NCBI RefSeq assembly: GCF_963676685.1 | Contig: NC_092354.1 | Span: 19,282,001 to 19,346,000 of the forward strand | From: Mytilus edulis | Taxonomy: Eukaryota | Reading direction: 5' to 3' | Length of the DNA stretch: 64,000 nt | Shown here: one piece after another, positions 3,539 through 54,025 of the stretch | Layout of the letters: the number at the start of each line of letters is the position of its first letter | Numbering within the stretch: the first letter of the stretch is position 1 | The notes under the pieces: generated by a model | Database searches by the model: none | What the model was told of the DNA's origin: nothing | Seen by the model: the letters and a program-made list of their open reading frames with translations, nothing else | Program-made: the position numbers and the translations under genes

Positions 3539-3922
3539 GTCTTATCTGTTTGTTTCATTAAAGAATGCACCAACAACTTATTCGCTACACTTGTTCTATC
3601 TAGATGAAGGTGACGATTTGTAACTGCTTCAATAATGCACATATTTTTTTATTTTTTTTTTATGAGATAGGGCTCGAAGATTGAGAAAGAAAAAATAATG
3701 ATCATTGATAGACACAAAAAAACACAATTTTATAAAAAATGGATAATCCATTATTCGTATTTATCCATCTTTTCTAAAAACTTATTGACGTTTGCTAAAT
3801 AACTTAAAGTATATTTACAGCTATTAAAAATGAAATTATTAATTTATGTTTATTTTCTTTTATTAAAACTCTAGGCCACACAACAAAAAATATAACGGGC
3901 AAGAAGGGACAAAACAAAGAAA

Positions 3923-5536: not shown

Positions 5537-8500
5537 CAAATCTTAAACATGTATTATCTGACTATTGCATTGTGAAAAGTTTAATTAGAAACCTAAAATA
5601 GATAAATGAGATCCTTAGTCAAGACATAGCAAACAAGGCAGCTGACTATATATGAAATATATTGATTATTAAATGAGGGGGGCAATACTTTTTTATATTA
5701 ACCTGTTTTTGCCTTTTTTCAAGGTGTTGTTAACTGTTATTTGAGATCATTTAAAGCTGTTAACAGTTTTCAACCCACTTTGTTAACTGTTATCAGCATT
5801 TTTTGCATTTTTTGTTATTAATAATTGTTTTTGCCAAAATCGAGGTGTTGTTAACATGTTAACGGACCCCCTATTTCCCCCTCTTTAATCTGGCATACTG
5901 CAAACATTTACATTTTTGGCTTCGTCGTGCATTGTTCTAGACAAAGTCATTAAGGAGTTCGATTGCTGTAGTTTTGAATTTGTTTGCAAAACATGACAAA
6001 GTTAAAAAAAGACATTTATCTGCAAATATCAAAAATGGGATTTATAAAAAGTTGATAGCTATTTTACAGCACTGAAACCTTCATGAGTTTCCTTATTGAA
6101 CACTGTTGAATGCAATCTATTTACCATGTTTACTAAAATGAAAGATTATTCCTACCAATTGTTTCAAAAATATTGGCAAAACATACATGACATATCTTGT
6201 CTTTAATGATAAATAATATAAATAATGTTCAATCGCTAAAAGAATTAAAAAAAAAATACAAGACTTTTATTTGCAAAACATTCTAGTTGAAAACAGGGGT
6301 CATGTTTAACAAAATTATTTTAAGATCATTTTTTTTTATTAGAAATATACAAATAAATAAAAGCAACAGTAGTATACTGCTATTCAAACTCATAAATCCA
6401 TGGACAAAAAACAAAATCGGGGTAACAAACTAAAACTGAACAATATTTGACAGTTTTAGGTTTTTGCATTTTCATGTCATATTATTTCAGAGCAAACATT
6501 TAAGCATTCCCGTGCTTGCATTTCCTATCATGATTTTCTTGATAGGAAGCTATTAAACCAAGCGTTCAAAATTGTGAAGTTAAAATCATCCCTTCGTAAA
6601 TTTTACGGACGCCATCATGAGTTGGTTGACCGTTATGGAATAACCGTTTCTCAAATGATATCGGATATGCACCTTACGTCGTAACTACAATATCCTTCCC
6701 TTTCATTAATGTGACCTATTAAATTAGACTATTTTCCGGATTTGTTATCACATAAGCAACACAACCGGTGCCACCTGTGGAGCAGGATCTACCCCTCCGG
6801 AGCACCTGCGTTGTCAGTTTACTTTCGATTTATGAGTTTGACTGTCCATTTGGTATCTTTCGTCCATCGTTAAACACTTCCATCATCACGCTTACATGTA
6901 TTACAGTGAAACCTGGCGAAACCGAACCTCTTCATTCATATTTTGAATAAAATGATTAAATAGAATAATCATTATGATTATGTAATATTGCTTATTATAT
7001 TCCTTGTATGTTCCGGACAACTCAGAAGTATGTCGCAGGAATACCATTCGTCAAAACTCGGTTGATTCCGTACCTCATAACGGATAGAAGGAAATTAGCG
7101 GAGTCACCCGAGGATTGCCGATTGGCATGAATATTTTACATTTGATACATGGAAGTACAATTGTAACACGCAATCTAAAATAAAAAGAATAAATGTGTTG
7201 TTAAAATAAAGAAACGTATGAGCTTAACGTTTATTTAGAATCTAATTTAAGACAGATCTTAGTTTTCATTAGCCTCAAATTTATACAATTATACATCAAT
7301 AATGTATTTATATTTTAAGGCCTCAAATTGATACAATTATACAAAAATAATGTATTTATTACTCAATGTATTCTGTTTGAATATTATTAAAACTACATTT
7401 ATTATGAATTTGAAACTGCTATATATTCATGATATGCATGTACTTCAAACTTGTAGCATATTGAACATTGTAGTTTATCAGCTAATCATTATTCTGTTAT
7501 ATTTAGGCCACACTTAAGAATAATTCAGTTTGTCCAAACCCAACCCAAAGATAGAACTCGTACCACTGGGAAGTCCTACCATTAAAAATATATTTAAAAA
7601 ATATGAATGTTTTATGTTTTTTTTTTTGTAAACTTAATAAAAATAAAGTTAAATTACTTGACTTAAGAGGTATTGAGTGAAAGTAAAGTACATATTCATC
7701 ATTTAACACCATTTAAATGCATTTAAATAAGTTGGTTCGAGTTAGCAGTGGTACGAGTTTGCATTGGTACGAGTTTTTATTTAGTGGTACGAGTTTACAT
7801 TGGTACGAGTTTACAATGGTACGGGATAACTATAATTCGAATCAGTGAGTAGGTAGGTAGGTAGTCATTTATTTTTATTATTATTTTTAACAAAGAGAAA
7901 TTAAATCGTTAAATGTTTTTTAGTCTCCATTCCTTTTTGATTAAAAACCACTTGATCACATGATGACAATAAAAGATTTGAAGTAGGCAGCTATTTTTGG
8001 GGTAGGTAGGGTTAGGCAAAACAAAACATCTTTTTATTATGGCCTTACTTAAAAAAATATTTGTTGATTCCAGTTGATAAAGAGGCCACTGATGGGCCTT
8101 TCCTTGGTTGTTTCGTTATGTCTGACATGGTTAGGGACCTTTCTGTGAACATTACCTTTCGGCTGTAGAGATAAAGGGAACATATCATCAGGATCAGCCA
8201 ATTTAACTATTATAACAATAGTCATTAAATTTCATTATAATCAGAATTTGACACTTAGTGTAAATATTTATGGATTTAAATCGTTAAATTAGTAATGTGC
8301 AAATGTTTAAACTTACAATGATTGAAGTTTCATACTCATCTGCTCATGAGAACTTAGATAATTAAAAATCAGATGTATATGGTTGGATATATCTCATTTT
8401 ATGTTTTATGACTATCAATATGTGACATTTAATGTACAAAAGACAATCCGTGTACCAAGTCAGGAATATGACAGTTGTTAATTATTCAATCGTTTTTTAT

Positions 8501-21595: not shown

Positions 21596-24500
21596 AATGA
21601 CTGTTTTATAATAATCCAATGTAAAGTGAATAGTAAACTAATTGCTGAAGAAAAATAAGAATTATATAGATTGTTTCAGTAACATCATACAACATTTAAT
21701 AAATAAATTTGGTTTTTTTACTGTCTTCTGATTGGTTAAAATTATTAGTTTTATTTTCAATGTTGTCAATTTTGATGGCGACACACCCACTCTGACGTTG
21801 TGTATTCATACTCCAACATGTGTGTACGTTGTTATTGTTAATATAAATAATATAAAAAGTTCTTTGAGCCTTATTTTTTATAGAAATTTATTTATAATGA
21901 ATGGCAATAATTTATTTTGATTTTATTGAACCATAAAACTTCGCGGATTATTCAATGTGAAGAGTCAAAAATTAGTTTTATGGTTCAATAAAATCAAAAT
22001 AGATAATAGCCATTCATTAAATAAACGTATGGAGTAAACTCTTGAATTTTGCATTAAAGCAAATGCACCAGATCTGATATGAATAGAGTTTAAAACAGAG
22101 ATACTATGGACTGTAACTCAGTATACCATGAATAGAAATGAAACAACAATGACAATTACTTTGACAGCTAGTTGTTAAATGCTCAAGAGAAAATAAATTA
22201 TATATAGAATCTAAACTCTTTAAGTTGGAAAAACTGTTGAATATTCTTCTCGACAAGTCCTTACACATTGACTTCAAGAAATTTTGAAGGTCAAGTTATG
22301 GAAACAATAATCATATCATAATATAATCTCTGTGTAGCTTTTTATATATACTGTTTTTACTGTCATAGTTTGACTTTGAATGTGTGTTGTTAAAGAATGT
22401 AAATATTTTTCTATAAGTGAACTGTTTTAATGCACATATATAAAATAAAAAATGTATAACACAATGAATATTATAATGCATTATTTGAAGTATTTGATGT
22501 GTTCAAATTTTTCATAATAAACAATTAAATTTGATGTCTTTTATTATTTTTCACACCACATTCATTTTTGAAATTGATAAGAACAAAACTTCCAGTCAAA
22601 AAGAGAAATAAAAATGAGTCACAACCCAAAAATGACAAACAAATAGCAGCTTCACACATGTTAGAACTACTATAAAGGTCGTCTCTATTTAAGCTAGCAA
22701 AAACTTAGTTCTCTGTGTCTACCTTGTTCAATTCAAGTAATACCTATTCACTTTGAATCTTAATTTAAAGATCAGGTCACCACTCATAAAAGATGATAAT
22801 CTTGGGTCCAGTAAAAAGATTGATACAGTTGATCTGTTGCCATTCTCCATAATGATCAGTTACTTTGCTGTCATAACTAATTGAACAACTTATATACATA
22901 TATGGAACAAATCAATTAAAGTTTCCTTAACGATCCTTGACCAGTAATGATAACGTCTGGCGTATATACAAAATGTAGTCCTGGTATCGATGATGAGTTT
23001 ATATAGAACAAATATATAAACATGTAAGTTCATGAGAGAACAACACAATACTTGAAAAGTGTGTTTTAGACTTCAAAACTGAAAATAATAAACTTGTTGA
23101 AAGTGGTTTATTCACAAGAAAGATTAGATTTTGGTTCACAATGTTTCCTTTAACAAAAAGTATTACTATTATTTCCTGCATCAAATGTCAACAAAAATCT
23201 AAGGTGAGCGACACAGGGTCCTTTGCCCCTCTAGTTTCGGTTTGCAATAGCGTTATCAGTTTGAGAACCACGACATGGTATATAACCCATTGTAATCTTA
23301 AGTCGTCATTTCAAGAAACGTCAACAATGATAGGCAATATATATACAAGTGGAGATCAGTTCTAAGGGTTATATCGAATATCGAGTATCGAATATACAAC
23401 AACATCATCAAACAAATAATCGAAGAATATCAAGGCTACTTCACAGTGTATCGACAAAAATGAAACACAATTTATCATTAGAAATACGAAGAGATGATTT
23501 TATTGCAAACGATGAAACAAACGACCAGAGTTTTAAAAAAGATATCAGGGATACTCCAACGATCCCACAACATCATGAACCAAATTACCATGCGATATCA
23601 AGAAGTTTACTTATGACATATGGCCTTAAAAAGATACAATATATCGACATTAAGCAAAGAATTGTTCCAAAAAGAAATACAGAGCTATATGCATCCATAA
23701 GTCTTGAATGTCTTGTCTATGACAAAAATTGTTTTCACATCTATAAGGTTTTTTTACCTGTATTCGTTCTCATATATCCCTGTAAAGTATCAATCCGACT
23801 AAATCCTTTACCACACACATCGCACATATACGTTTTTTGAACCAGTATGTGTTGTGGGAATCGTAGTTCACTAGTTTGACGACATCTTCTACCGCATACA
23901 CCACACTTACAAATGTGCTTTTCACCAGTATGTATTTTCATATGCATATATATACATTTGTAGTTTTAATCGTTGACTAAACCGTTTGCTGCATATATCA
24001 CAGTTAAAAGGTTTATTATCCGTGTGTGTTATTGTGTTAACCTTTAAATAGTACAACATTTACGTGACACATATTATGTATATATATATATATATATAGG
24101 TTTTTAGCAAGTATGCATTCCAATGTGTTAGTAAATCGTGTCCTTGGCGTAATATTTTATCACATTCTTTACAAATTCAATATTTTTCAAACATATCTGT
24201 TCTCATATGTCTCTTTAAGGCATCACTTCGACTTAAATACAAACATCACATATATATGGTTTGATATCAGTATGAATTTTTATGTGTGTCTTTGGCATGT
24301 TTAAGGAACTATTTTGACCATTACTTCGATCGTACACGTCTCATCATAAAAAGTTTCCATATTGTGTATACGCATGTGTGACTTTTATTCACAAACGTCA
24401 CAGTTAAAAGCTTTACCATCATTGGGATAACGCATGAGTGACTTTAATTGTTGATTAAGTCTAAAACTTTTACCACATTCATCACATGTATATTAAAGGT

Positions 24501-24799
24501 TCATCACCAGTGTGTATTTTTATATGTCTCTGTAAGTTACTTCTTCCAGAAAATCCTTTACCATATACATCACAAGTATAAGGTTTATCACCAGTCATGC
24601 AAATGTGACTTATCATGCTTCCCATGTGTGACGAGATCCTTTAAGAATTTTTTCCAAACACGTCAGAGTTAAAAACTTTATCATCATTGTGTATACGCAT
24701 GTGTGACTCTTAGTGTTGTTTGAGACTAAAACATTTACTACAAACATCACATGTATGACGTGTGTCATCATTGTCTAGTATATGCATGTGTGACTTTAA

Positions 24800-25062
24800 G
24801 GTGGTACCTAACACTACTGAGAGATAACTTTGTAAAGTCAGCTAAACGTTTTAATAACGTTGTGTGGTAAAGGTAAAATCAAGCTTCTCAATGATCAATA
24901 TTGTTATTTCTCTAACTGCTACATAACAAACGGTTGGTTCAAAATTTTTGAAATTTTTATATTTTTGTTAAAGGGTCAAAGTTAATATATCATGTACATT
25001 GTCAATATTTTACGAAAATTAAACGAACACAATTCATTTTAGTCAAAGTGTTGGGTACCACC
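24800..25062. mobile_element. Kolobok-like MITE with TTAA TSD
   Basis: ttaa-GGTGGTACCTAACACT...AGTGTTGGGTACCACC-ttaa; removing it restores the ZNF remnant. Confidence 0.8.
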
Positions 25063-25186
25063 TTAAGTGTTCTTTAAGAGTAAAACCTTCACTACATAGT
25101 ACACAGGTAAAAGGTGTAAGTTATCATCATGATCATGTGCATCCGTAAGTTACATCTTTGAGCAAATAATTTACCACATACGTCAA

Positions 25187-26572
25187 ACATGAGAAAAATT
25201 GACCCCCCCCCCCAATTTTTTTTCACATCCCCTTTTCCCTTATTCTAAAACTGATCTCAATTCCAATTTCTAATGGAGTTTGCAACAATAACTACTCATT
25301 TAAATACATCATAAAATATTAAAATGTAAAAAAGTGCATGTTATCACTGAATGGTAAAGATTGTTTTAATTTATCAGTTGGTAGTAAAAGTGAATATACA
25401 TTGTATATTGTATAAAACAATGATTTAAGTTGATTCAACTACTCTTCTGGACAAAGAAAGATAACTCTAATTGAAATTTCTTGCTATTGCGCAATATTGT
25501 GCAATTAGATATTTCTTGCACTTGCGAAATACTGTGCAATTGAAAATACTTGTCATTGCACAATACTTTGCAATTGAAGATTTCTTGCTATTGCGCAATA
25601 ATGTGTGTTTGAAAATTTCTTGCTATTGCACAATACTGTCCAATTGAAAATTTCTTGCTACTGCTGAATACTGTGCAATTGAAATTTCTTGCTACTGCTG
25701 AATACTGTGTAATTGAAAGTTTCTTGCTGTTGCACAATACTTAATATAATAATTTTGGATCCTGATTTGGAACAACTTGAAAACTGGGCCAATAATCAAA
25801 AATATAAGTACATGTTAAGATTCAGCATATCAAAGAACCCCAGGGATTTAATTTTTGTTAAAATCAAACTAAGTTTAATTTTGGACCCTTTGGACCTTAA
25901 TGTAGACCAATTTGAAAACAGGACCAAAAATTAAGAATCTACATGCACAGTTAGATTCGGCATATCAAAGAACCCCAATTATTCAATTTTTGATGAAATC
26001 AAACAAAGTTTAATTTTGGACCCTTTTGGACCCTTATTCCTAAACTGTTGGGATTAAAACTCCCAAAAGTAATCCCAACCTTCCTTATATAGTCATAAAC
26101 CTTGTGTTAAAATTTCATAAATTTCTATTTACATATACTAAAGTTATTGTGCGAAAACCAAGAATAATGCTTATTTGTGCCCTTTTTTGGCCCCTAATTT
26201 CTAAACTGTTGGAACCAAAACTCCCGAATTAAATCCCAACCTTCCTTTTGTGGTCATAAACCTTGTGTCAAAATTTCATAGATTTCTATTTACTTAAACT
26301 AAAGTTATAGTGCAAAAAACAAGAAAATGCTTATTTGGGCCCTTTTTGGCCCCTAATTCCTAAAATAGTGGGACCAAAACTCCCAAAACCAATCCCAACC
26401 TTCCTTGTGTGGTTATAAACCTTGTGTTCAAATTTCATAGATTTCTATTCACTTTTACTAAAGTTAGAGTGCGAAAACTAAAAGTATTCGGACGACGACG
26501 ACGCAGACGACGACGCCAACGTGATACCAATATACGACGAACAAATTTTTAATTTTTGCGGTCGTATAAAAA
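25187..26572 (-). mobile_element. HINE/DINE-like element with internal tandem repeats, inserted in the ZNF remnant
   Basis: 5' tttttatacgaccgc...gtcgtata hairpin and (gtc)n; ~31-bp repeats at 25470-25740 and longer repeats at 26020-26480. Confidence 0.7.
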
Positions 26573-27514
26573 TAAATGTACACATATAAGTAAATTTGAA
26601 GTTTAACAAGTGAATTTTATTTACTTGTATAGGTAAAAAAAAAATGGCTAAAGTTATGTCCCTTAGACATTCAGATTTTTTTACTTGTAGAAGTAAAAAA
26701 GTAATCCTTTCTTCTTTTCTTGAATTCTTAAGATTTCTTAGCCCTGATAGAATTTTAAATTGTGTACCCTTTGCAGATGTCTTTACTAATCATTTAAGTA
26801 CAATTTCCTGAAACGTCACAATTAAAAGGTTTATCTTTATTGTGTACACGCATGTGTGAATTTTAGAGTTGTTTAATATTAAAACTTTTGCCACATACAT
26901 CACAGTTAAAAGATTTATCACCAATATGGTTTCTTAATGACGTATATGGGTCTGTAAATTGCTTCTTCCAGTAAATCCTTTACCACATACATCACAGGCA
27001 TAAGGTGTATCATCAGTCATATCATGAACTATCATGTGTTACTTTAATTCACTACGTCCTTTGGGATCTGTTCCACACACGTCACAGTTAAAAGGTTTAT
27101 CATCATCATGATCATTGTACATACGCATGTGTGACTTTAATTTGTGATTAACACTAAGCATTTACTACATACATCACACGTATTAGTTTAATCACCAGTA
27201 TGCTGTATCATGTGTGACTATAATCAATAAGATCGATTAAACGCTTTCCCTGAAACATCACAATTCACAATTGTGTCATCATTTCCGGAAATATCAATCG
27301 TTACTTTATTTTTCTGAATTTGGAACTTTTATTCATAGACGTTTTGTGTGGTCCGCTTGTCCACTATTGAGCCGCTCAGTGGCCTTAAACTATATTGTGG
27401 AATCATCCCTAAATCGTCACATTAAAAAGGTTTATCACCATTGTGGATACACATGTGTGACTTTAAAAGCTGTTTAAGACTAAAACTTTTACCACATACA
27501 TCACAGTTAAAAGA

Positions 27515-28474
27515 TTAATCCCCATGATCACCAGTATGTATTCTTATATGTGTCTGTAATTTACCGGTTCGAGCAAATCCTTTACCACATACATCACATG
27601 TATAAGGTTTTTCTCCAGTGTGAATACTCATGTGTTCCTGTACGTGCTGCTTCCGACTAAAAGCTTTACCACATACATCACAGCTAAACGATTTATCACC
27701 AACATGTATTCTTATATGTCTCTGTAAGTTACTTCTTCCAGCAAATCCTTTACCACATACATCACATGTATAAGGTTTATCACCAGTGTGTATACGCATA
27801 TGATTTTTTACGTGCGGCTTCTGTCTAAAAGTTTTACCACATACATCACAGCTAAAAGGTTTAACATCAGTGTGTATACGCATATGTTTATTTACGTGTG
27901 TCTTCTGTCTAAAAGCTTTACCACATACATCACAGCTAAAAGATTTATCACCAATATGTATTCGTATATGTCTCTGTAAGTTACTTCTTCTAGCAAATCC
28001 TTTACCACATACATCACATGTATAAGGTTTATCACCAGTGTGTATAAGCATATGTTTCTTTACGTGTGGCTTCTGTCTAAACGCTTGACCACATACATCA
28101 CAGCTAAAAGGTTTAACATCAGTGTTATATGTTATATGTTTACCACATATTTTACATTTATACGGTTTGTTGGCAGTTTGCTGAATTATAATTGTGTTAA
28201 ATTCACTAGGTTGGTATTTTGACTGTTCTTCTCTTTTCAATCCTTTAACACATACTTGACAAGTATTCTCGGACTTATCATGTCTTTTCCATTCGTTACT
28301 ACACAATTGACACTCATGCTGTATCTTTTCTTCCCTTTCTAATCCTTTACCACACAGTTGACCAGTGCAATTCTTACACCCATTATTATATATTGTGTCT
28401 GCCTTTATAAAGTGATCTGGATTATGATCAAGCGAATCGTTCATAAAATCAACTGTATTTTTGTTGTCAGTCAT
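27515..28474 (-). CDS. C2H2 zinc-finger protein, paralog 2, truncated to 7 fingers by a premature stop
   Basis: 319-aa ORF; after the TAA the frame continues directly as SFNCDVCGKSF..., so the stop appears to replace the Lys of a DK linker. Confidence 0.85.
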
Positions 28475-29077
28475 TTTCTGTGTTTAGCCCCTTCTTGCTC
28501 TCTTTTGTGTTCTTGGCTTGCGCCTTTTACAAAAGAAAAATAACTTGAATCAGTCAATTTAAGGTTGAATATCATAATATCTAAACATCTAAATATATTT
28601 AGTAAACGTAAGTAAGTTGGGGTTTTTTTAAGAAGAAAAATGGTTCATACCGTCACCATTCGAGGATTATCTGATATATACAATTGTTGTCCTTTTTTGG
28701 CGTGTATAATTGATCATTACATTTTATTTGTTTTCCTCTATCTTCATGATCTTTGCGTCTTAGATATTTGAATTTCTGGTTTTTTTCTCTATCGTCGATG
28801 TGCCTAATGTCTTTTGATGATTTTTTAAAAAGATTTATTTCAAAAGACAGTAACATATCATCACAACTCGGACGCTTCTGTACTGTCATCTTTTAAAAGA
28901 GTAGCCGTAACAGGGTACTGCCCGATTTGGGCAAGTTAAATTAAATTCTGTATATCGGCAAGTTAACATATTATGTGTATTCCCTCTTTCTTTTCTTTTT
29001 AATCATTACTTTTTAGGTTATAAAAAAATATTGCACAGTTTAGCTATCTTGAGATTTCTATTCAAAAAAAGATATTG

Positions 29078-39591: not shown

Positions 39592-39989
39592 GAACAATAC
39601 ATGATACTGGTGAGTTAAGTACAAATAATGAATATTATAAATGCTACAACATGTATAATGTCTAATAAAAAAACATTAAGGAATATTAAAATAAATGACT
39701 AAAAAGTATTGAGAAAAATGAATGCATATTAAATGAAGGAAAAAATATCTACAAGTTACATCAGAAAAACAATTTATCAATTTTTTTGAAGGTTATTCAA
39801 AGTAATTGAAAAGAAAAATATTATGTAATGCATAACTTTAAATTACTTTTAATTAGACATATGCTCAATTACACATTACATTTAACACATGTTTAATAAC
39901 TTTCAAAAAATTTCATTAATTACAGCTAACTACAATTACATTTTTAATTTTCCCAGGTCTAACACAAAGAAGCCAAAACTATGTGTTGT

Positions 39990-40474
39990 CATGTGATTCT
40001 ATACCTCACAAGTTTGACGAAATCTTCTACCGCATACACCACACTTAAAATTGTGCTTTTCACCAGTGTGTATTTTCATAGGCACACATACATTTGTAGT
40101 TTTAATCGTTGCATAACTTAACCGTTTACTGCATACATCACAGTTTATCACCAGTGTGTATACTCTTTGTGTTTCTTAACCTGCGGCTTCTGCCTGAAAT
40201 CTTTACCAAATACATCACATGTATAAGGTTAATCTCCAGTGTAAAAACGCATGTGTGACTTAAAGTGTTGTTTAAGACTTTAACCTTAACTACCTACGCC
40301 ATAGCTAAAAGGTTTATCCTGCACTGTGTGTCCTCATGTCCATCCGTATGTTACAACTTTGAGCAAATCCTTAATCGCATACACCAGGTGTATCACCATC
40401 ATGATATATCATGTGTGACTTTAATTGATTAGATCGTTTAAACGCTTTAAACGCTTTCCCACAAACGTCACAAT
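39990..40474 (-). pseudogene. Decayed zinc fingers downstream of the paralog 3 stop
   Basis: Finger remnants, e.g. cttctaccgcatacaccacactt...caccagtgtgtattttcata, nearly identical to 23885-23975. Confidence 0.7.
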
Positions 40475-42103
40475 TCAAAAGTTTGTCGGTATTACACGAT
40501 AAAGTGGAATCATCCCTGAAACGACACAATTAAAATGTGTATCATCATTGCGTATACATGGTATACACATGTGTAACTTTAATTCACTACGTCGTTTAAA
40601 ATCTTTACTACACACGTCACAGGTGAAAGGTTTCTCATCATTGTGTATACACATGTGTGACTTCAAATCACTAGGTCGTTTAAAATCTTTACTACAAACT
40701 GTACAGATGTTAGGTTTATCCTCATTGTGTATAAACATGTGTGACTTTAATTGTTGATTAAGACTAAAACTTTTACCACATTCATCACATGTATAAGGTT
40801 TATCACCCGTGTGAAAACGCATGTGTGACTTCAAATCACTAGGTCGTTTAAAATTTTTACTACAAACTTTACAGATGTAAGGTTTATCCTCATTGTGTAT
40901 AAACATGTGTGACTTTAATTGTTGATTAAGACTAAACATTTTACCACATACATCGCATGTATAAGGTTTATCACCAGTGTGAATACGCATGTGTGACTTC
41001 AATTCACTAGGTCGTCTAAAATCTTTTCCACACACGTCACAGTTGAAAGGTTTATCACCAGTGTGCATACGCATGTGTGACTTTAATTGACTGAGTCGTC
41101 TATAATCTTTTTCACACACGTCACAGGTATAAGGTTTATCACCAGTGTGAACACGCATGTGTGAATTTAATTGATTAATTTGTCTAAAATCTTTTCCACA
41201 CACGTCACAGTTAAAAGGTTTATTATCATTGTGTATACGCATATGTGACTGCAAGTATGGTTTAAGACTAAAAGATTTACTACATACATCACAGCTAAAA
41301 GGTTTATCACCAGTGTGTATAAGCATATGTTTCTTTACGTGCAGCTTCTGTCTAAAAGCTTTACCACATACATCACAGCTAAATAGTTTAACATCAGTAT
41401 GAGTTCTCATGTGCAACTGTAAGTCATAACTCTGTGCAAATTCTTTACTGCATATATCACATGTATAAGGTTTATCATCAGTCATACCAGTGTGATTTAT
41501 CATGTGTGACTTTAATTCACTAGGTCGTTTAAATTCTCTTCCACAAACGTCACAGTTAAAAGGTTTATCATCATTGTGTATACGCATGTGTGACTTTAAG
41601 TTTGGTTTTAGACTAAAAGATTTACTAAACACATTACATTCAAAAGGTTTATCACTAGTGTGTATTCTCATATGCATCCGTAGGTGATATCCACGATTAA
41701 AATCTTTACCACATATTTCACATTTATAAGGATGGTTAGCAGTTTGCAGAATTGTGTGTGTCTTTGATTCACTAGGTTCATCTTTTAACGTTTCTTCCCT
41801 TTCCAATCCTTTAACACACACTTTAGCACTTTTTTCGGACTTGTCATGCCTTTTCAATTCTTGTCCACACAATTGACACTCATTCTGTATATTTTCTTCC
41901 CTTTCTAATCCCTTACCACACAGTTGACAAGTGCAATTCTTACCCCTATTATTACATATCGTGTCTTCTTTTATAAAGTGGTCTGGTTTATGATCAGGGG
42001 ACACGTTAATTAAACCCATTGTAATTTTGTTGTCAGTCATTTTCTGTGTTTTGCCCCTTTTTCTCCGTTTTTGCTTTTGTTGTCTGGCTTTCATTCTTAA
42101 CAA
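40475..42103 (-). CDS. C2H2 zinc-finger protein, paralog 3 (~12 intact fingers); likely start at MTDNK (~42040) or via an upstream exon
   Basis: 542-aa ORF with tandem C2H2 fingers and a recent two-finger (168-nt) internal duplication. Confidence 0.88.
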   Translation of the reverse strand: MLRMKARQQKQKRRKRGKTQKMTDNKITMGLINVSPDHKPDHFIKEDTICNNRGKNCTCQLCGKGLEREENIQNECQLCGQELKRHDKSEKSAKVCVKGLEREETLKDEPSESKTHTILQTANHPYKCEICGKDFNRGYHLRMHMRIHTSDKPFECNVFSKSFSLKPNLKSHMRIHNDDKPFNCDVCGREFKRPSELKSHMINHTGMTDDKPYTCDICSKEFAQSYDLQLHMRTHTDVKLFSCDVCGKAFRQKLHVKKHMLIHTGDKPFSCDVCSKSFSLKPYLQSHMRIHNDNKPFNCDVCGKDFRQINQLNSHMRVHTGDKPYTCDVCEKDYRRLSQLKSHMRMHTGDKPFNCDVCGKDFRRPSELKSHMRIHTGDKPYTCDVCGKMFSLNQQLKSHMFIHNEDKPYICKVCSKNFKRPSDLKSHMRFHTGDKPYTCDECGKSFSLNQQLKSHMFIHNEDKPNICTVCSKDFKRPSDLKSHMCIHNDEKPFTCDVCSKDFKRRSELKLHMCIPCIRNDDTHFNCVVSGMIPLYRVIPTNF

Positions 42104-42879
42104 AAAGAAAAGAAAAACATAAATCAGTGAATTTAATTTGAATATCTAACATTTTCTAAATATCTTAGGTTTTTTTTATACACGTAAATACGTTTTAATA
42201 ATAGCTATGGGTCATGCTATTCAAGAAGTATCCCTCTGATATACAGTTGTTGTTCCTTTTTGAGTCTAAAAATGAACTTTAAATTTTGATTTTTTTCTCT
42301 ATCTTCGTGCCATTTGTTATTTGTAGAATTTTTAAAAGATGTACATCATTGAGGCAGTTACATATCATCACAACTCGGCCGATTCCGTACCTTCGTCTAG
42401 ATAGAAGACTATCGAATTCACCCGAGGATTGTCGATTGAAATCAGGGAATCTGATTGGACGAAATAAATGCATGTCGTCATTTGGTAAGTAACCGCCACA
42501 ATATGCACTGCCCAATTAAGCAAGTGAAATTAAAAGTTGTGTTTCGACAAATTCACATACTATTTGTATTTTTCTCTGTTATAGACATTATAAATAAACT
42601 GTTATCACAGAGATATGTCTCGACTTTTTGAAATTTCGATAATGCAAAATGTTGAAATCAAAATAGCAACACTTTAACATGCAAGTCTTGCAAATATTCA
42701 AAGTCAATGAACCCTGACTGAAGGTACATGGCTTAACCATCCCAATGGAAATAAAATGTGCAAATGCTGATACAACTGCATCCAAATACTATTGACTTAT
42801 CATAAGTAGTTGCCTTTAAACAAACCTAAACACAAACTTATACATGTAAACTCGGCAACATCTGAAAGTAAATAATCCC

Positions 42880-46379: not shown

Positions 46380-47481
46380 GGGGGGGGGGGGGGGGGGTCA
46401 AGAAAATTTTATATGTTTGATTTCAAAATGACCAGCAAAATTGACCTTAATAAGCATTGTGTTAAGAATTAATTGCTTCTTTTATAAATTCATTGGGGGT
46501 GTTTTAAAGCGTTGACCAAAGTACATTTTGTACGAAGCGCGGAAATATGCGCACGGTCAACGCTTTTACAATCCTAGTATGAAATAATTAAAAGAAGCAT
46601 TCAATAGATATAGGAAGATGTGGTGTGAGTGCCAATGAGACAACTCTCCATACAAATAACAATTTAAAAAGTAAACCATTATAGGTTAAAGTACGGCCTT
46701 CAACACGGAGCCTTAGCTCAATACTTATAATTACATTTTTTTGCTATGCTCATGAAAAATTCATTTTTATCAATTATTTCTTTAAATAACCTGTGCTCTT
46801 TTTTAGTGACGTGTCATCATAAACTTCATTGGGATATGAATGTGAGTTTTAGTATGATGCACAGGCGTTTAATGTTATCCAATCAAAATAACACATACAT
46901 GTACTATATTAATTATAATAAGTTTCATAACATTAATTGGTTGAGGTAGAAAACGGAAACAATCAAACAAAAACAGCATTTTCACATATATAGAGTCGTA
47001 ACTACATGTAATGGGAGGGGGAGTAGGAGGGGGTGAACGGATCATATAAAAATTGCGGTTTTTATCCAACGCAATCATAGGTTTGAACGTAGTTTTCAAT
47101 TTAGACTCGTTTATATTTTTTCATTTGGGCTTGTATCATATTTTCCCTCCGGTTTATATGATCCGTTCATCTTATATTGACTCTTAACATTTAAGTGTCT
47201 ATCTAAAAATTAGGGTACTTTTTATATGGCCTTCCAAATACCGTTTCGATCCCTAACATCACTAAAGAGACATTTATTGTCGAAATCCGGATCTGGTGTA
47301 CAAAAAAAATATTGACACCGTATGTTTGTGGCATAAAATCGTGGCTACAAGTTAAAAAAAAATTCTGTTTAGTATTAAATTTATATTAAGATCCATTTTG
47401 TTACATCTTGTGATCAATTTTATTTGGCAATCGCCAATGGCAGTCAGCAGGGTTAAAGAACATTAGTTGTTCGACCTGTTA
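46380..47481 (+). repeat. Left copy of the ~1.1-kb direct repeat flanking the LINE
   Basis: Near-identical to 52867-53963 (offset 6482 over most of its length). Confidence 0.92.
47256..47299 (+). ncRNA. Minimal hammerhead with core mutation (CUAAAGA); identical copy at 53738-53781
   Basis: acatca CTAAAGA gac-atttatt-gtc GAAA tccgga TC tggtgt. Confidence 0.6.
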
Positions 47482-47735
47482 TATATATCTTTATTTCCTC
47501 CAATAATGAAGAGCATTAGTTAGATCGATAGTTAAAGTAAAGTTGGAAGATAGGACAGTATATTTACAAACAATATATCAAAATTAACCTTTACACAATT
47601 ATATAAACGTGAAGAATGCGTAACAAGAGAATAAAATTAAATGTTTATCAGCCTAAGAAAGTACCAATGTTCACACAGTAGAATCTTTTACACAACTAAT
47701 TGTCTAATATGTAGAAATTGTTCTATTCATCCAAT

Positions 47736-50700
47736 TCAAGTCGCACACATCCAGTATATGTTTGTGATGCAGGCCTTTTGAAACATAGTCCGTTCATCTT
47801 CGTTTAGATCAAAGTCTGTATGACATGATAAGATGCATGCTAAAAAGTCTTCGTCAGTTAAACTATGTAGATAGGCACTGAATTCGATTGGACCTATATC
47901 TATTAAATCACACCAAAACTTGTCCCTTTTTGACTGGAAAGTTTCACAAGAGAGTACAATGTGAATAGTTATATCACCGAAAAACCTTCCGCACTTGTCA
48001 CACAGAAAAAACGGTTCTTCATATGGACGGGTTAAGGTACACAGATTGACAATAAAACGGCACTGTTCTATAAGTAATGGATGTTTTCGGCTAAAAGTCC
48101 AAGCAGGATGAAGACCTTTTGAAAGTGTATGTATACGACTGAAGAATTTAAAATCTTTGTCTATTTGTGTCCTGAAACGCCACAATGATTCCTCGGTTTC
48201 TTGGACGGCAACTTTAACTGTTTTCTTCCATTGAATGTAAGTTGGGAAATGACCTGTACTCAGGTAAGTATCAAAGTCTGACAATCTATAATTGACCAAA
48301 ATTCTATGTATATCAGGAATAAATCCAAGCTGGTGTTTAACACAGTTATATTTAAATTCCATAGCTCGGGTAAGAAATATCTGCTTTGGAAGCATTGAGT
48401 CTTTCATTAATATTAACTTTCCAAGAAATAATAATTTCCGTTCATCTATGTATGACTCGGCGGACTTCCATCCAATCAACGCAGTTACCATATCAGATCT
48501 AGTTTGCCTTGGTAATCCCTGTATAGATTTACACACATACCGTTGTGCACGTTCTAGTAATAAAATCTCGGTGTTGGTAATTTCGGTCCACAATTCACAT
48601 CCGAAAAAAGCTTTCGTGAAACATACCTGACGAACTATACGGTTACAAGTGTCAATACTGATAACAGAAGGATGTAAACCTGATTTGATCAACCCTAATG
48701 CTGAAGATCTTAATGTTCTGCAGGCTTGAAGTGTTCTGTCCATAGAATTAAGATTACTGTTCAATAGGACTCCTACATGCCTAGCGGAAATTTCCAATTG
48801 TATGCTGCTGTTGTACAGTAGAATATCCGTATGTTGTTTTGATTTGGAAAAATTAAGTTGAATGCTTTTTAGTGGATTAAACTTAAATTTCCAATCAATG
48901 CTATAATTTTCGCAAATTGTAACCATTGTCTGCATGTTACAACAGTTAGTACTGATCAAAGCGATATCATCTGCTTGAACTGGTGATGAAATATGAATGT
49001 CCGTTACGAGTATGCCACGTCTACAATCGGAAAGCTCTTCTAACAAGTCATTAATATATAACAAATACAATTTAGATGATAAGCTGCTCCCTTGGCGAAC
49101 ACCACGGTAAACTGGGAAGAAACGTGAGATTTGTCCGTTGTAAAGAACTGCACTTTTAGCGTCCGAGTACATATTAGCCATAAGCAACCATAATTTTCCA
49201 GTTACTCCATATTCAAGCAGTTTGTACAACAATCCGTTGTGCCAAACAGTGTCAAATGCTTTTGTTGAATCAAGTAAAACAACTATAACTTTTCCAAGTC
49301 TTTCAATATGGTGATAAATGGATTCATGAATATTGAATGATGTATGTAAACACGATAGACACTGCTGATATGCCGTTTGCTGTGGGTTTGGAAAGCATTT
49401 GTTGTCTTTTTTCAATTCAAGTTTTAAATCAATGATTTTATCAAACACTTTTCCAATACACGGTGCTAAACTTATTCCTCGATATGAGTTTGGATCACTT
49501 TTACATTTTTTCCCTCCTTTAAATAAAGGAACAATCAAACTTGATTTCCAAGATTTTGGAGAATAAAAGTTGTAACAAACTAAGTTGAAAAGTTTTGTCA
49601 TGTGATTTCTCAAACTGTTGCCGCCGTATTTCAGATGTTCATATTCGATGTTATCTAATCCAGACGCTTTATTATTTTTTAGGCACTTCAATACCTTTTC
49701 CACTTCGTTAACTGTAATATTTAGCTTAGTGTTGTTATAAAATGTTCCTCTGAAATCTTTGTTAGCAACCTCAACAGTCTTGGTTATCACCCGTTCCTTG
49801 TCACTAACCGGTTCTGATTCAGTATTTTGTTTGAAGATTGACTCGAAGTGCTCTGCCCATCCATCTAAGATATCATCCTGGGTCGAACATTGTCTCCCAT
49901 TTACAATTAGTCTTGATAAGCAGCTTTTAGACTTTTTATTTTTGTTCAGAAATGACCAGAGACGTTTTTGATCTATATCGAAATCCTTTTCGAGTGAATT
50001 ATATGTTTCTTGCATATGCTTTTGATATGCATTTCGTAATTCCCGTCGGAAGTTTCTTTTGGCTGATTTGTATTCTTGAAATATGACGTGTTCACCTCTT
50101 GGCCTATTACAAGAAATCCATTGTTGGCGTTTTGAAGCCATATTTTCATGCAGCGCATTTACTTGATGAGTCCAGTATGGTTTAAGGTATTTTACGAAAG
50201 TTTTGTGTGGTAAAGTTTCTGTTTCAGCTTGTTGTATTGCATCAACGATGTTCGAGTAATAACACTCTATATCACAATTAGAACATCCTAAACTCGGTAT
50301 CTCCACGCCCCAAAGATGCTGTGAAGTTGCAAAAGAGAAGTCTTCCAAATTGTTCTTTTCTCTAGCCTTGTTCCATGATACCTTGGATTGTTGTATTATA
50401 GTTTCCGTGTCTGCATTTACTGTATTGTCTAATATTAGCTTGGCTATAATTGGATGATGATCCGAAACATTAAACGAATGATCGTCTAACACTCTTGCAG
50501 AATCAATCAGACTGATATTATCCTTTGATATCAAAATATGGTCTATAGCAGTAGATGGACCACTTTCATAAGACTGGAATGTAAATGTATTTCCTTCACC
50601 AAAGGGTTGTAAATGTAAGGAAACGAGACGCAATTCGTCCAAAAATTTCGCAAATGTTACTGATCGTTTATCTCTAACGGAATTAAATGATCTCGGACCA

Positions 50701-51374
50701 ATTACTTTGGCGTTTATATCTCCAAGAATGATGACTATACCTAGCTGAGAGTATATCATGTATGTGTCGTACAGTCGCTCAACGTAATTTCTAAAATGTT
50801 CGAATGGCTTTGACGATGCAGGTAAGTATACGCAGAAGCAATATATATTCTCGGAGTGAATGGTGTGAATTTCTATTCCTGTAATACGCGTGTCCTCTAT
50901 ATCAATACTTTCAACATATTTGACAATTGAAGATTTAACAATAAAAGTCACACCCCCTTCCATGCGAATTTTAAACGCTTCAGGGTAGCTATCATCAACA
51001 CATTTTGGATTTACAGATGAATAAGTCGAATCAATACTTTCGAGTACATTTACACAGTGTCTACGCAACCAATGTTCCTGTAAAGCACATATATCAACAT
51101 CGTGGTTTTTCAAGCACTCCACCAAATATGGGACACTTGACATAATCCCTCTACAATTCCATGACATAAATGTTAGTTTGCTGGACATGTTCATTAAAGT
51201 GTCACATAAGATATAGATGATTACTAGATATATTAATTTGTTAATTGCCATATTTTTCATTCTTATAGCTGTTTCTTTCTTGTAGCTGACGACGGGATAA
51301 CCAACGTTTGAAAAAAATGCCGTTTGGCCAAAAGTTAGAATCATACACTCTTTCTTTTTCTGAGTGTCGAACAT
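47736..51374 (-). CDS. LINE ORF2: APE endonuclease, reverse transcriptase, C-terminal CCHC knuckle
   Basis: SWNCRG, LQEHW, GDINA, IDHI, SDHHP; PNSYRGISL, GVRQGSSLS, QADDI; CDKC...H...C; uninterrupted (true start probably ~51194-51257). Confidence 0.93.
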   Translation of the reverse strand: MFDTQKKKECMILTFGQTAFFSNVGYPVVSYKKETAIRMKNMAINKLIYLVIIYILCDTLMNMSSKLTFMSWNCRGIMSSVPYLVECLKNHDVDICALQEHWLRRHCVNVLESIDSTYSSVNPKCVDDSYPEAFKIRMEGGVTFIVKSSIVKYVESIDIEDTRITGIEIHTIHSENIYCFCVYLPASSKPFEHFRNYVERLYDTYMIYSQLGIVIILGDINAKVIGPRSFNSVRDKRSVTFAKFLDELRLVSLHLQPFGEGNTFTFQSYESGPSTAIDHILISKDNISLIDSARVLDDHSFNVSDHHPIIAKLILDNTVNADTETIIQQSKVSWNKAREKNNLEDFSFATSQHLWGVEIPSLGCSNCDIECYYSNIVDAIQQAETETLPHKTFVKYLKPYWTHQVNALHENMASKRQQWISCNRPRGEHVIFQEYKSAKRNFRRELRNAYQKHMQETYNSLEKDFDIDQKRLWSFLNKNKKSKSCLSRLIVNGRQCSTQDDILDGWAEHFESIFKQNTESEPVSDKERVITKTVEVANKDFRGTFYNNTKLNITVNEVEKVLKCLKNNKASGLDNIEYEHLKYGGNSLRNHMTKLFNLVCYNFYSPKSWKSSLIVPLFKGGKKCKSDPNSYRGISLAPCIGKVFDKIIDLKLELKKDNKCFPNPQQTAYQQCLSCLHTSFNIHESIYHHIERLGKVIVVLLDSTKAFDTVWHNGLLYKLLEYGVTGKLWLLMANMYSDAKSAVLYNGQISRFFPVYRGVRQGSSLSSKLYLLYINDLLEELSDCRRGILVTDIHISSPVQADDIALISTNCCNMQTMVTICENYSIDWKFKFNPLKSIQLNFSKSKQHTDILLYNSSIQLEISARHVGVLLNSNLNSMDRTLQACRTLRSSALGLIKSGLHPSVISIDTCNRIVRQVCFTKAFFGCELWTEITNTEILLLERAQRYVCKSIQGLPRQTRSDMVTALIGWKSAESYIDERKLLFLGKLILMKDSMLPKQIFLTRAMEFKYNCVKHQLGFIPDIHRILVNYRLSDFDTYLSTGHFPTYIQWKKTVKVAVQETEESLWRFRTQIDKDFKFFSRIHTLSKGLHPAWTFSRKHPLLIEQCRFIVNLCTLTRPYEEPFFLCDKCGRFFGDITIHIVLSCETFQSKRDKFWCDLIDIGPIEFSAYLHSLTDEDFLACILSCHTDFDLNEDERTMFQKACITNIYWMCAT

Positions 51375-52866
51375 TTAGTTGAGCAGAGTTACTATATAAT
51401 CCTTTGGTGAAAAATCGAATATAGGTGAACTTGATATTGTTTTCAAGTAGGAAGTCTCGCATGTCACTTTCGGTGCAGTCTTTCCTAATTCCTCCGACAT
51501 ACAAACGTTCGACTCGTTTATCCGATACTCCCCTAAAATTGTTTAACGAAACCATGTTTTGATCACTCGATATAACAACTTCAATGTGTTCTGTTGAGGA
51601 TTGAGTCTGTGTTTGCTTTTTCCCATGATTTTCTATAGTCTTGGACATTTCAAATGAACTGAATTCTGACATACTACTATCATCGATGACTGTGTCTATA
51701 TTTGTAGAATTATCAGTAACTATATCTTTTGTTCCATCATACTGATGTTCAGTTGTCGACTTTTCTTGGTCTTTATCTGTTAGGTCTGCCATTTGAAATT
51801 TTGACAGACGTTTTGGACTCACGAAAGAAATGAGATCAATGTCGCTGTCTGTACTTATTTTCGGGGACTTTGGATAGTTCTTTGTTTTTGTTTTTGTCTT
51901 CTTAATGTCACCACTTTTGTGTAAATCTGAGATACTGCTGTTGTTCACTTTGATGTCTGATTTAACTGTGTCTATTTCGTCACTCAAATCATATATATCT
52001 TTTCTCACTAATTTTAAGTTAGCACGTAAAGCATCTACTCCGCTAAATTTCGAGTCTTCCAGCCTTGTTATCCTAGAATCTACAGACTTTTCGAAGATTT
52101 TCAACGCATTAATATCTTCTTTTACTGACTGTATCTTGGTTGAGTTATTTCCTGTTTCGGTTGCAAGAGAACTTATTACTGTGTCGATTTCTGAAATATC
52201 CTTTTTGACCTCAATCAAGTTTTGACTATTTTGCTTAGTCTGATTGTTTTCATCTGTAAGAGTTTTGATTTCGCATCTTATTTCGGCCATGAATTCAACT
52301 AAAGCAGAGTCAGATTTGTCAATCGAATTTTGAAGTCGGTATATTTTATCTGATTGTTTCTTCACGACATCTTTTAACGTTTCATTTTCTTTAATCATAT
52401 CTCGTATCCTTTTATCAATATTATCGATATCTTGTGCGTTTTCACCTTTCATCGTCATTATATCGCGATCCAACCGTGCTAAGCCTTCTTTGAGGAACAA
52501 GTCGTTGGAACTGTCTGTTCCTACATCTTGTCCGTTATCAGATGATCTACAGTTTTGTGATTGCCTTGGTCCTTGCGATTTTGGAATATTAATAGTTTCT
52601 AGCAATTCGTCGTTACAGTTGTCATTCAATGCAACATACAAAATAAAGCAATCTTTGGCTAATTTTTGTAATAATGTGTCCCTATTTTTTGAACGTGCTC
52701 CATATCGCTTTTTCAAAGTTGCTGTCTTGTATGGAAAATTTTCCCGATCTCTAACTTCCGAAAAGAAACGCATTCTTAATTCTTCAAGTTTATGTGTATC
52801 ACTACTGGTTGTTTGGATTAGTTTTGAAATGAAGGTTTCTTTTGGGCAGCCTCTGAAATTTTCATC
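51241..52866 (-). CDS. LINE ORF1 (coiled coil plus C-terminal RRM-like domain), N-terminus missing
   Basis: Long heptad-rich region, RLYVGGI, FWPNGIFFKRW; directly upstream of ORF2. Confidence 0.75.
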   Translation of the reverse strand, partial: DENFRGCPKETFISKLIQTTSSDTHKLEELRMRFFSEVRDRENFPYKTATLKKRYGARSKNRDTLLQKLAKDCFILYVALNDNCNDELLETINIPKSQGPRQSQNCRSSDNGQDVGTDSSNDLFLKEGLARLDRDIMTMKGENAQDIDNIDKRIRDMIKENETLKDVVKKQSDKIYRLQNSIDKSDSALVEFMAEIRCEIKTLTDENNQTKQNSQNLIEVKKDISEIDTVISSLATETGNNSTKIQSVKEDINALKIFEKSVDSRITRLEDSKFSGVDALRANLKLVRKDIYDLSDEIDTVKSDIKVNNSSISDLHKSGDIKKTKTKTKNYPKSPKISTDSDIDLISFVSPKRLSKFQMADLTDKDQEKSTTEHQYDGTKDIVTDNSTNIDTVIDDSSMSEFSSFEMSKTIENHGKKQTQTQSSTEHIEVVISSDQNMVSLNNFRGVSDKRVERLYVGGIRKDCTESDMRDFLLENNIKFTYIRFFTKGLYSNSAQLNVRHSEKERVYDSNFWPNGIFFKRWLSRRQLQERNSYKNEKYGN

Positions 52867-53963
52867 GGGGGGGGGGGGGGGGGGGGGGGGGGTCAAGAAA
52901 ATTTTATATGTTTGATTTCAAAATGACCTTAATAAGCATTGTGTTAAGAATTAATTGCTTCTTTTATAAATTCATTGGGGGTGTTTTAAAGCGTTGACCA
53001 AAGTACATTTTGTACGAAGCGCGGAAATATGCGCACGGTCAACGCTTTTACAATCCTAGTATGAAATAATTAAAAGAAGCATTCAATAGATATAGGAAGA
53101 TGTGGTGTGAGTGCCAATGAGACAACTCTCCATACAAATAACAATTTAAAAAGTAAACCATTATAGGTTAAAGTACGGCCTTCAACACGGAGCCTTAGCT
53201 CAATACTTATAATTACATTTTTTTGCTATGCTCATGAAAAATTCATTTTTATCAATTATTTCTTTAAATAACCTGTGCTCTTTTTTAGTGACGTGTCATC
53301 ATAAACTTCATTGGGATATGAATGTGAGTTTTAGTATGATGCACAGGCGTTTAATGTTATCCAATCAAAATAACACATACATGTACTATATTAATTATAA
53401 TAAGTTTCATAACATTAATTGGTTGAGGTAGAAAACGGAAACAATCAAACAAAAACAGCATTTTCACATATATAGAGTCGTAACTACATGTAATGGGAGG
53501 GGGAGTAGGAGGGGGTGAACGGATCATATAAAAATTGCGGTTTTTATCCAACGCAATCATAGGTTTGAACGTAGTTTTCAATTTAGACTCGTTTATATTT
53601 TTTCGTTTGGGCTTGTATCATATTTTCCCTCCGGTTTATATGATCCGTTCATCTTATATTGACTCTTAACATTTAAGTGTCTATCTAAAAATTAGGGTAC
53701 TTTTTATATGGCCTTCCAAATACCGTTTCGATCCCTAACATCACTAAAGAGACATTTATTGTCGAAATCCGGATCTGGTGTACAAAAAAAATATTGACAC
53801 CGTATGTTTGTGGCATAAAATCGTGGCTACAAGTTAAAAAAAAATTCTGTTTAGTATTAAATTTATATTAAGATCCATTTTGTTACATCTTGTGATCAAT
53901 TTTATTTGGCAATCGCCAATGGCAGTCAGCAGGGTTAAAGAACATCAGTTGTTCGACCTGTTA
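52867..53963 (+). repeat. Right copy of the ~1.1-kb direct repeat flanking the LINE
   Basis: Differs from the left copy by G-run length, a 13-bp indel and at least 2 substitutions. Confidence 0.92.
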
Positions 53964-54025
53964 ATCAAATGCGTTTTGTTTAAATATACTTTTTCACTTT
54001 TTTTTGTCTTTTGGAAAGTATATAT

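Follow-up and report, generated by a model that had tools for sequence, protein, structure and literature searches.

In a 64,000-nt stretch of the Mytilus edulis genome (NC_092354.1:19,282,001-19,346,000, forward strand; hereafter the window, in which all coordinates are given), a 5'-truncated long interspersed nuclear element (LINE) of the Proto2/RTE-X type stands between two direct copies of a 1.1-kb segment of host DNA. We consider it very probable that the insertion of the LINE made this duplication. Our fuller reading, held with good if somewhat lower confidence, is that of a target-site duplication (TSD) made at insertion from a single near nick and a distant second end supplied by the host, a habit that would be common among the relatives of the element. 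A first-pass annotation, made from the sequence of the window alone, had proposed a giant TSD and called for a survey of TSD lengths. This survey, in which 27 repeat-flanked copies were found in the own and related families, provides the main support for the proposal. Within its clade this one locus is nothing unusual; the finding is the habit of the clade as a whole.

The duplicated segment and its junctions

BLAST alignment of copy 1 (1,102 bp) with copy 2 (1,097 bp) gave 98.6% identity (E 0). The copies differ by two substitutions (47123/53605 and 47464/53946), by a 13-bp indel flanked by two TGACC (microhomology) and missing in copy 2, and by the length of a G-run, 18 in copy 1 and 26 in copy 2 (Table 1). 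The right end of copy 1 is the (AT)n tail of the LINE, with a 2-nt TA overlap, and the left end of copy 2 is the truncation point of the LINE, where 1 nt is common to the G-run and the element. A full-length sister copy shows that the first 588 bp are missing from the LINE. That the repeat ends to the base at the 3' tail and at the truncated open reading frame (ORF) 1, as first annotated, was confirmed both by BLAST and by the comparison with the full-length sister.

The duplicated DNA is a mosaic of host repeats and low-copy DNA, and the earlier description of a patchwork that is not a long terminal repeat (LTR) also holds: flanking repeats differ at each element copy and no integrase or protease was found in Pfam, on which grounds an LTR retrotransposon was rejected. 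A high-copy repeat family is interrupted at the LINE tail in copy 1 and continues to 54017 after copy 2, which indicates that the natural empty site consists of the left flank, one copy and the right flank. Among 103 matches (from 40 scored candidates out of 3,792), the complete 1.1-kb segment is present at these two places only. The high-copy family, with units of ~546 bp, is dispersed and unclassified, and forms arrays of several units on many contigs.

Table 1. Features of the LINE and of the duplicated segment in the window.
Feature	Position	Strand	Evidence or remark
Duplicated target, copy 1 (3' of the element)	46380..47481	+	Joined to the native left flank; contigs of runs X1, X6 and X16 run from the flank into copy 1
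G18 run, left end of the duplicated segment	46380..46397	+	
13-bp segment between two TGACC, lost in copy 2 (likely derived state)	46429..46441	+	X6 contig spans 46407-46571 with 1 gap only
Very high-copy short dispersed repeat within the duplicated segment	about 46604..46720		
Low-copy core of the duplicated segment	about 46810..47040		
Tandem-forming high-copy repeat of ~546-bp units, broken off at the LINE tail (putative first-strand nick site); derived A47123 and T47464	47045..47481		103 matches, from 40 scored candidates out of 3,792
5'-truncated Proto2/RTE-X-type LINE, 5,385 bp	47482..52866	-	96% identity to 5,975-bp full-length sister copy
3' untranslated region, ending in GGAGGAAATAAAG-(AT)n	47482..47735	-	
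ORF2, 1,212 aa, open; APE endonuclease, reverse transcriptase, C-terminal CCHC-type knuckle	47736..51374	-	Pfam Exo_endo_phos E 9e-12, RVT_1 E 1.5e-23
ORF1 remnant, 541 open codons, first ~70 codons missing	51241..52866	-	
Duplicated target, copy 2 (5' of the element)	52867..53963	+	Joined to the native right flank
G26 run at the 5' junction	52867..52892	+	1 nt shared with the element
High-copy repeat of ~546-bp units, extending past the duplicated segment	53527..54017		18 of 28 family copies align across 53527-54017

Placement of the element among LINE clades

The frames of ORF1 and ORF2 overlap by 134 nt (51241-51374), as they do in the full-length sister. No Pfam family reached the cut-off in the ORF1 remnant. 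In ORF2, Pfam gives the APE endonuclease and reverse transcriptase (RT) domains alone, and no second nuclease was detected. PD-(D/E)xK is the motif sought as a sign of a restriction-like endonuclease (RLE), and none is visible in ORF2, which ends ~70 aa past the CCHC knuckle. The APE domain preceding the RT in ORF2, the 5' truncation and the simple-repeat tail are those of an APE-type non-LTR retrotransposon. Membership of the Dualen group was rejected, as APE is present and no RLE was found by Pfam or by reading of the C-terminus.

The RT of the element is nested among families with RT motifs matching Proto2 entries of Table S7 in PMC10294476, on both sides of the tree. The motifs of the surveyed families match those of M.edulis_270, 292, 343, 154, 235, 147, 221 and 256, all labelled Proto2; the RepeatMasker type listed for these families is RTE-X or Proto2, and four look-alikes have RepeatMasker type RTE-X yet tree clade Proto2 (PMC10294476). 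By match to the printed motifs and by position in a tree built without Repbase reference sequences, the element is best placed with the bivalve Proto2-labelled LINEs (RepeatMasker RTE-X or Proto2). Its first assignment to the RTE clade was not upheld: RTE proper (RTE-1/BovB) is rejected for a 6-kb two-ORF element that nests among Proto2-labelled families, since RTE-clade elements measure about 3.2-3.6 kb (PMC10294476) and their TSDs mostly 7-15 bp (PMC6007223).

Long duplications among sister and related copies

We assessed 13 copies of the element's own family with an intact tail, leaving out C12a and C13 (no tail, shared flank) and C12b and C7b (old). Exact repeats from tail to 5' end flank four of them, namely the 1.1-kb locus and copies with repeats of 136 bp (100% identical), 424 bp (98.6%) and 116 bp (98.3%). 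The element is bracketed by two repeat copies in the same orientation, one beginning at its 3' tail and one finishing at its 5' end, and the repeated DNA is host sequence, different for each element copy: the flanking repeats of the sister copies are unrelated in sequence and differ in length. Copy C6 has a partial repeat, which begins 842 bp upstream and is interrupted by a 2.5-kb insert. Copy C7 is inserted in another LINE, of which 604-605 bp are deleted by comparison with two intact copies of this host element. A 14-kb repeat suspected around sister C3 proved to consist of dispersed repeats.

Two side observations concern this family. Four stubs of about 40-44 bp each (L100-L103) hold only the last ~40 bp of the LINE family, and no TSD was found around them; they are either extreme 5' truncations or the tails of an undescribed short element. 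Two tail-less fragments, L048 and L049 (in C12 and C13), lie on separate contigs and share one downstream flank, as would be expected of fragments that travelled within another element or a segmental duplication.

The survey was extended to related families across the genome (1.37 Gb, 14 large contigs, one assembly). From 150 RT hits, 70 loci with open-looking frames were picked, and 10-24 kb around each were examined. On the element's side of the RT tree lie 55 loci, 50 of them with a usable 3' end; L118 (no sibling) and L116, L126, L133, L141 and L171 (3' end missing) were left out. A direct repeat starting at the tail was found in 23 of the 50 copies, and in 19 of the 23 it also reaches the 5' end of the element. 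Repeat lengths are 39, 87, ~110, ~121, 223, 336, 353, 458, 668, 702, 898, 1,041, 1,100, 1,649, 1,730, 2,610, 2,697, 2,789, 2,814, 3,137, 3,181, 3,336 and 4,652 bp. Over the 27 repeats measured in the own and related families, the median is 898 bp, and 10 of the other 26 are longer than the 1.1-kb repeat (counted here as 1,084 bp, with the G-run left out). A length of 1.1 kb, thought extreme in the first-pass annotation, is therefore about mid-range for the clade.

No short TSD of the usual kind was found in the related copies: in copies lacking a long repeat, the two ends have no word of more than 8 nt in common, with the 5' end being uncertain for the longest copy of some families. A search for deletions by means of host repeats gave two clean cases among 54 copies without a long repeat, C7 and the related copy L123, where 150 bp of a host element are deleted relative to three host copies. 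Two further candidates, L121 (gap of 942-1,165 bp, references 81-85% identical) and L136 (about 5 bp), were left uncounted because of their high divergence. All 27 repeat-flanked copies have an intact 3' tail at the start of the repeat, and 14 of 24 elements are full-length. Longer elements tend weakly to have longer repeats (rho 0.49, p 0.014, n=24; a post hoc comparison, confounded by family), and the difference in repeat length between full-length and truncated elements gave p 0.095.

Fourteen long duplicates were inspected for host genes by reading their ORFs without a Pfam scan, and were found to hold mostly pieces of other elements. The 2.8-kb segment duplicated at L140 has a 355-codon open frame starting with C2H2-like motifs, and a piece of a host or transposon gene may have been duplicated there. 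At L110 and L144, which belong to unrelated LINE families, nearly the same 30 bp lie just before the aligned start of the element, probably the edge of a further mobile element that went into or next to each of them.

L1/Tx1 elements of the same genome

As a control, 18 loci of the L1/Tx1 type were taken from 150 zf-RVT hits, and 16 of them had a sibling defining their ends (L250 and L256, without one, were left out). TSDs of 9-16 bp were present in 12 of the 16, none was found in 3, and 1 had a long repeat; these TSDs were read by eye, and overlap with the poly-A tail inflates some of them. The host is thus able to make ordinary TSDs, and the assembly keeps them. The contrast between related families and L1/Tx1 is significant both for long repeats (Fisher p 0.006) and for short TSDs (p 4e-10), copies within a family not being independent. 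It also indicates that the bias follows the clade of the element.

A proposed model with a distant second end

We infer the following sequence of steps, and with it where the second end would come from. The single APE endonuclease of the element would nick one strand at 47481/2, and the RT would prime at this nick on the (AT)n tail, with no second nick being made nearby. The host would then supply the other end at a variable distance, possibly an unrelated nick to which strand displacement extends or, as an alternative of our own, the broken or resected end of a replication fork, and end-joining between this distant end and the cDNA would use 0-4 nt of homology. Depending on the side of the first nick on which the second end falls, a duplication or a deletion would result. 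The 5' junctions that we examined do have 0-4 nt of homology, and the measured deletions are of 150 and 604 bp. In a published second-end model, whether a duplication or a truncation arises depends on the side of the first nick at which the second end lies (PMC2666801), and a distal unrelated nick has been proposed for L1 in cells deficient in nucleotide excision repair (NER) (PMC5223499).

The first-pass annotation had suggested that the G-run promoted second-strand joining through microhomology or a G-quadruplex (G4). This did not survive as a general rule, as the homology is of 1 nt here and a G/C run of at least 5 at the 5' junction was found only at this locus and at sister C11b, against none of 24 junctions of related families. 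The G-run is incidental.

Several observations weigh against this model and against a clade-wide habit. No repeat was detected within the searched flank in 27 of the 50 related copies, or in 7 of the 13 own-family copies (5 of these 7 being stubs of less than 300 bp), and a deletion was demonstrated for two copies only. Two related families have no repeat at all (0 of 4 and 0 of 2 copies), and the more distant Proto2-labelled group has one in 14. The choice of loci by open frames favours young copies. At L114, L150, L158 and L159 the repeat stops 348-853 bp before the start of the sibling alignment, and L114 sits in a tandem array. A clock test found no correlation between repeat divergence and nearest-sibling divergence (rho 0.07, n=21), the nearest sibling being a poor proxy for age. 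At L157, the 2.6-kb repeat is 2.8% diverged with many gaps, and the element is 0.5% from its sibling, which is possibly due to allelic recombination within one copy or to a haplotype switch. In the control, a 99.9% identical repeat of at least 1,252 bp starts at the poly-A tail of L247 (359-1610 versus 8749-10000 in C9:7354967-7364966), so that the outcome is enriched in the Proto2-side clade and not exclusive to it. Finally, all evidence comes from one assembly. Neither LINE junction was found to be crossed by a contig or read; for the 3' junction this applies to 32 of more than 160,000 contig pieces, and at the 5' junction 52856-52905, at the G-run, was uncovered.

Alternative explanations

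A first alternative, which we regard as unlikely, keeps the duplication element-made: ORF2 would make a real second cut far away, for instance by DNA looping or by protein tracking during reverse transcription. This would agree with the bias of the outcome by clade, and the weak correlation of repeat length with element length leaves room for it. Against it, lengths range over two orders of magnitude and deletions occur as well, second ends have no visible sequence in common, and ORF2 has a single detectable nuclease domain.

The duplication could also be an artefact, with the filled and empty haplotypes around a heterozygous LINE joined end to end in the assembly and the 1.1 kb echoed; this we hold to be quite improbable. 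The animal is indeed highly heterozygous, and alleles of other individuals differ at many sites; no junction-spanning read was seen, the long G-run at the 5' junction is difficult to sequence, and several of the surveyed repeats are 100% identical between copies. The case against an artefact comes mainly from the many loci at which the ends are exact to the base (27 repeats starting exactly at tails and mostly ending exactly at 5' ends), from the ordinary TSDs of L1/Tx1 copies in the same assembly, and from later insertions confined to one duplicate, at L112 and at the C6 sister.

At the locus itself, the two copies are closer to each other than alleles are: the allele of run X1 has 16 differences in 246 bp, far above the divergence between copies 1 and 2. 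Each copy also carries derived changes of its own, which speaks against a simple echo, as did the initial remark on the few differences between the copies. Copy 1 deviates at both substitution sites from all 28 family copies, which have the states of copy 2, and the 13 bp missing in copy 2 are kept in the allele of another individual. The depth of locus-identical contigs in the low-copy core favours two copies of the segment in X15 (190.7 versus 71-93 in the flanks) and X16 (7.99 versus 2.8-3.6), and is flat in X1; contig depth gives no copy number and is a weak hint, X15 and X16 coming from one study, possibly the assembly's own source, and not being independent. The flat X1 depth hints at an empty allele with one copy, contigs crossing the left boundary and no single record spanning the empty site. 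When the 3' junction was checked, an X15 contig was found to join the LINE tail to another flank.

It appears very improbable that the LINE cDNA was captured, independently of the endonuclease, at a pre-existing staggered break or collapsed fork, the duplication being a product of host repair. Duplications, deletions and 0-4-nt homologies are typical of break repair, and no strong consensus of the nick site is seen beyond 1-5 nt matching the tail; on the other hand, the tail is intact at the repeat start in 27 of 27 cases, full-length elements are frequent, the APE domain is intact, and break capture should not favour one clade over L1/Tx1. Two further possibilities, a tandem duplication already present with the LINE inserted at its seam and a terminal repeat of the element itself, can be practically dismissed: part of the repeat does come from a family forming tandem arrays, but the whole segment lies at two places only among the 103 matches, sister flanks are unrelated and of different lengths, and landing exactly at a seam would have to recur at many loci.

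Comparison with known long target-site duplications

The closest parallel is Dualen-4b_cRei of Chlamydomonas reinhardtii, in which more than half of new insertions have duplications above 50 bp, with a median of 900 bp (PMC9977147), close to the 898 bp found here. Dualen elements have two endonucleases, RLE and APE, suggested by the authors as a possible cause (PMC9977147). The mussel LINE differs in having APE only, in its animal host, in that inherited genomic copies across many families are concerned, and in also producing target deletions.

Engineered human L1 gave TSDs of up to 6,765 bp, together with target deletions, in NER-deficient or HeLa cells (PMC5223499). Both are thus APE-only LINEs with long TSDs and target deletions; the difference is that long TSDs require a host repair defect in the human system, where they make up at most 10% of HeLa events (PMC5223499). 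Small tandem duplications and deletions of 1-10 kb at L1 sites are also described in cell models (PMC11702581). For ZfL2-2 of zebrafish, studied in DT40 cells, it depends on where the second end lies whether duplication, blunt joining or truncation results, and one TSD measured 1,228 bp; unlike in the mussel families, long alterations are rare in the wild type (1 in 25; PMC2666801). Rotifer R9 has a 126-bp TSD (as cited in PMC9977147). Like the mussel elements, R9 and Rte-1 are natural animal LINEs with long TSDs; their repeats are about tenfold shorter than the kilobase repeats described here, and R9 is specific to ribosomal DNA, with one fixed length. The repeats of Rte-1, from C. elegans, measure ~200 bp.

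The bivalve Proto2/RTE-X LINEs of PMC10294476 are of a similar length class and have matching RT motifs; nothing on long TSDs was found in the passages of this study that were examined. Likewise, the examined passages of 10.1101/2022.08.07.503107, PMC12477816, 10.64898/2026.02.10.705023 and PMC1291365, the last of which gives TSDs of 10-12 bp, hold nothing on long LINE TSDs. A literature search without Repbase Reports and most subscription journals, which may have missed an earlier note, gave no account of kilobase TSDs as a routine outcome for Proto2/RTE-X or any natural group of animal LINEs.

The cutting and joining of the second strand in LINE insertion have long been an open question, and kilobase duplications were known before from repair-deficient cells, from rare single events and from one algal element with two nucleases (sources as above). 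Here, nearly half of the copies in many families with intact reading frames have long duplications, beside L1/Tx1 elements that behave normally, and this contrast between clades within one genome offers a natural setting for mapping the protein feature that decides the outcome. We lean towards the view that a bivalve sub-clade of Proto2/RTE-X with a single APE makes no near second-strand cut and routinely uses distant ends made by the host. In mussels, this sub-clade would constantly supply the germline with tandem duplications and deletions of 0.1-5 kb, and giant duplications like those of Dualen would not need two nucleases.

The clade is a candidate source of kilobase-scale structural variation in bivalves, and could copy or remove exons and promoters. 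Pipelines for transposable elements that are limited to TSDs below 50 bp within flanks of 200 bp (as in PMC6007223) would overlook long TSDs, and assembly curation might purge them as false duplications.

Other features of the window

The window also contains related C2H2 zinc-finger reading frames made of 84-bp repeats, at 3600-5600 (+), 23700-28700 (-) and 39900-42400 (-). Frames of this cluster measure 546, 322 and 556 aa and have 15, 7 and 12 fingers, respectively.

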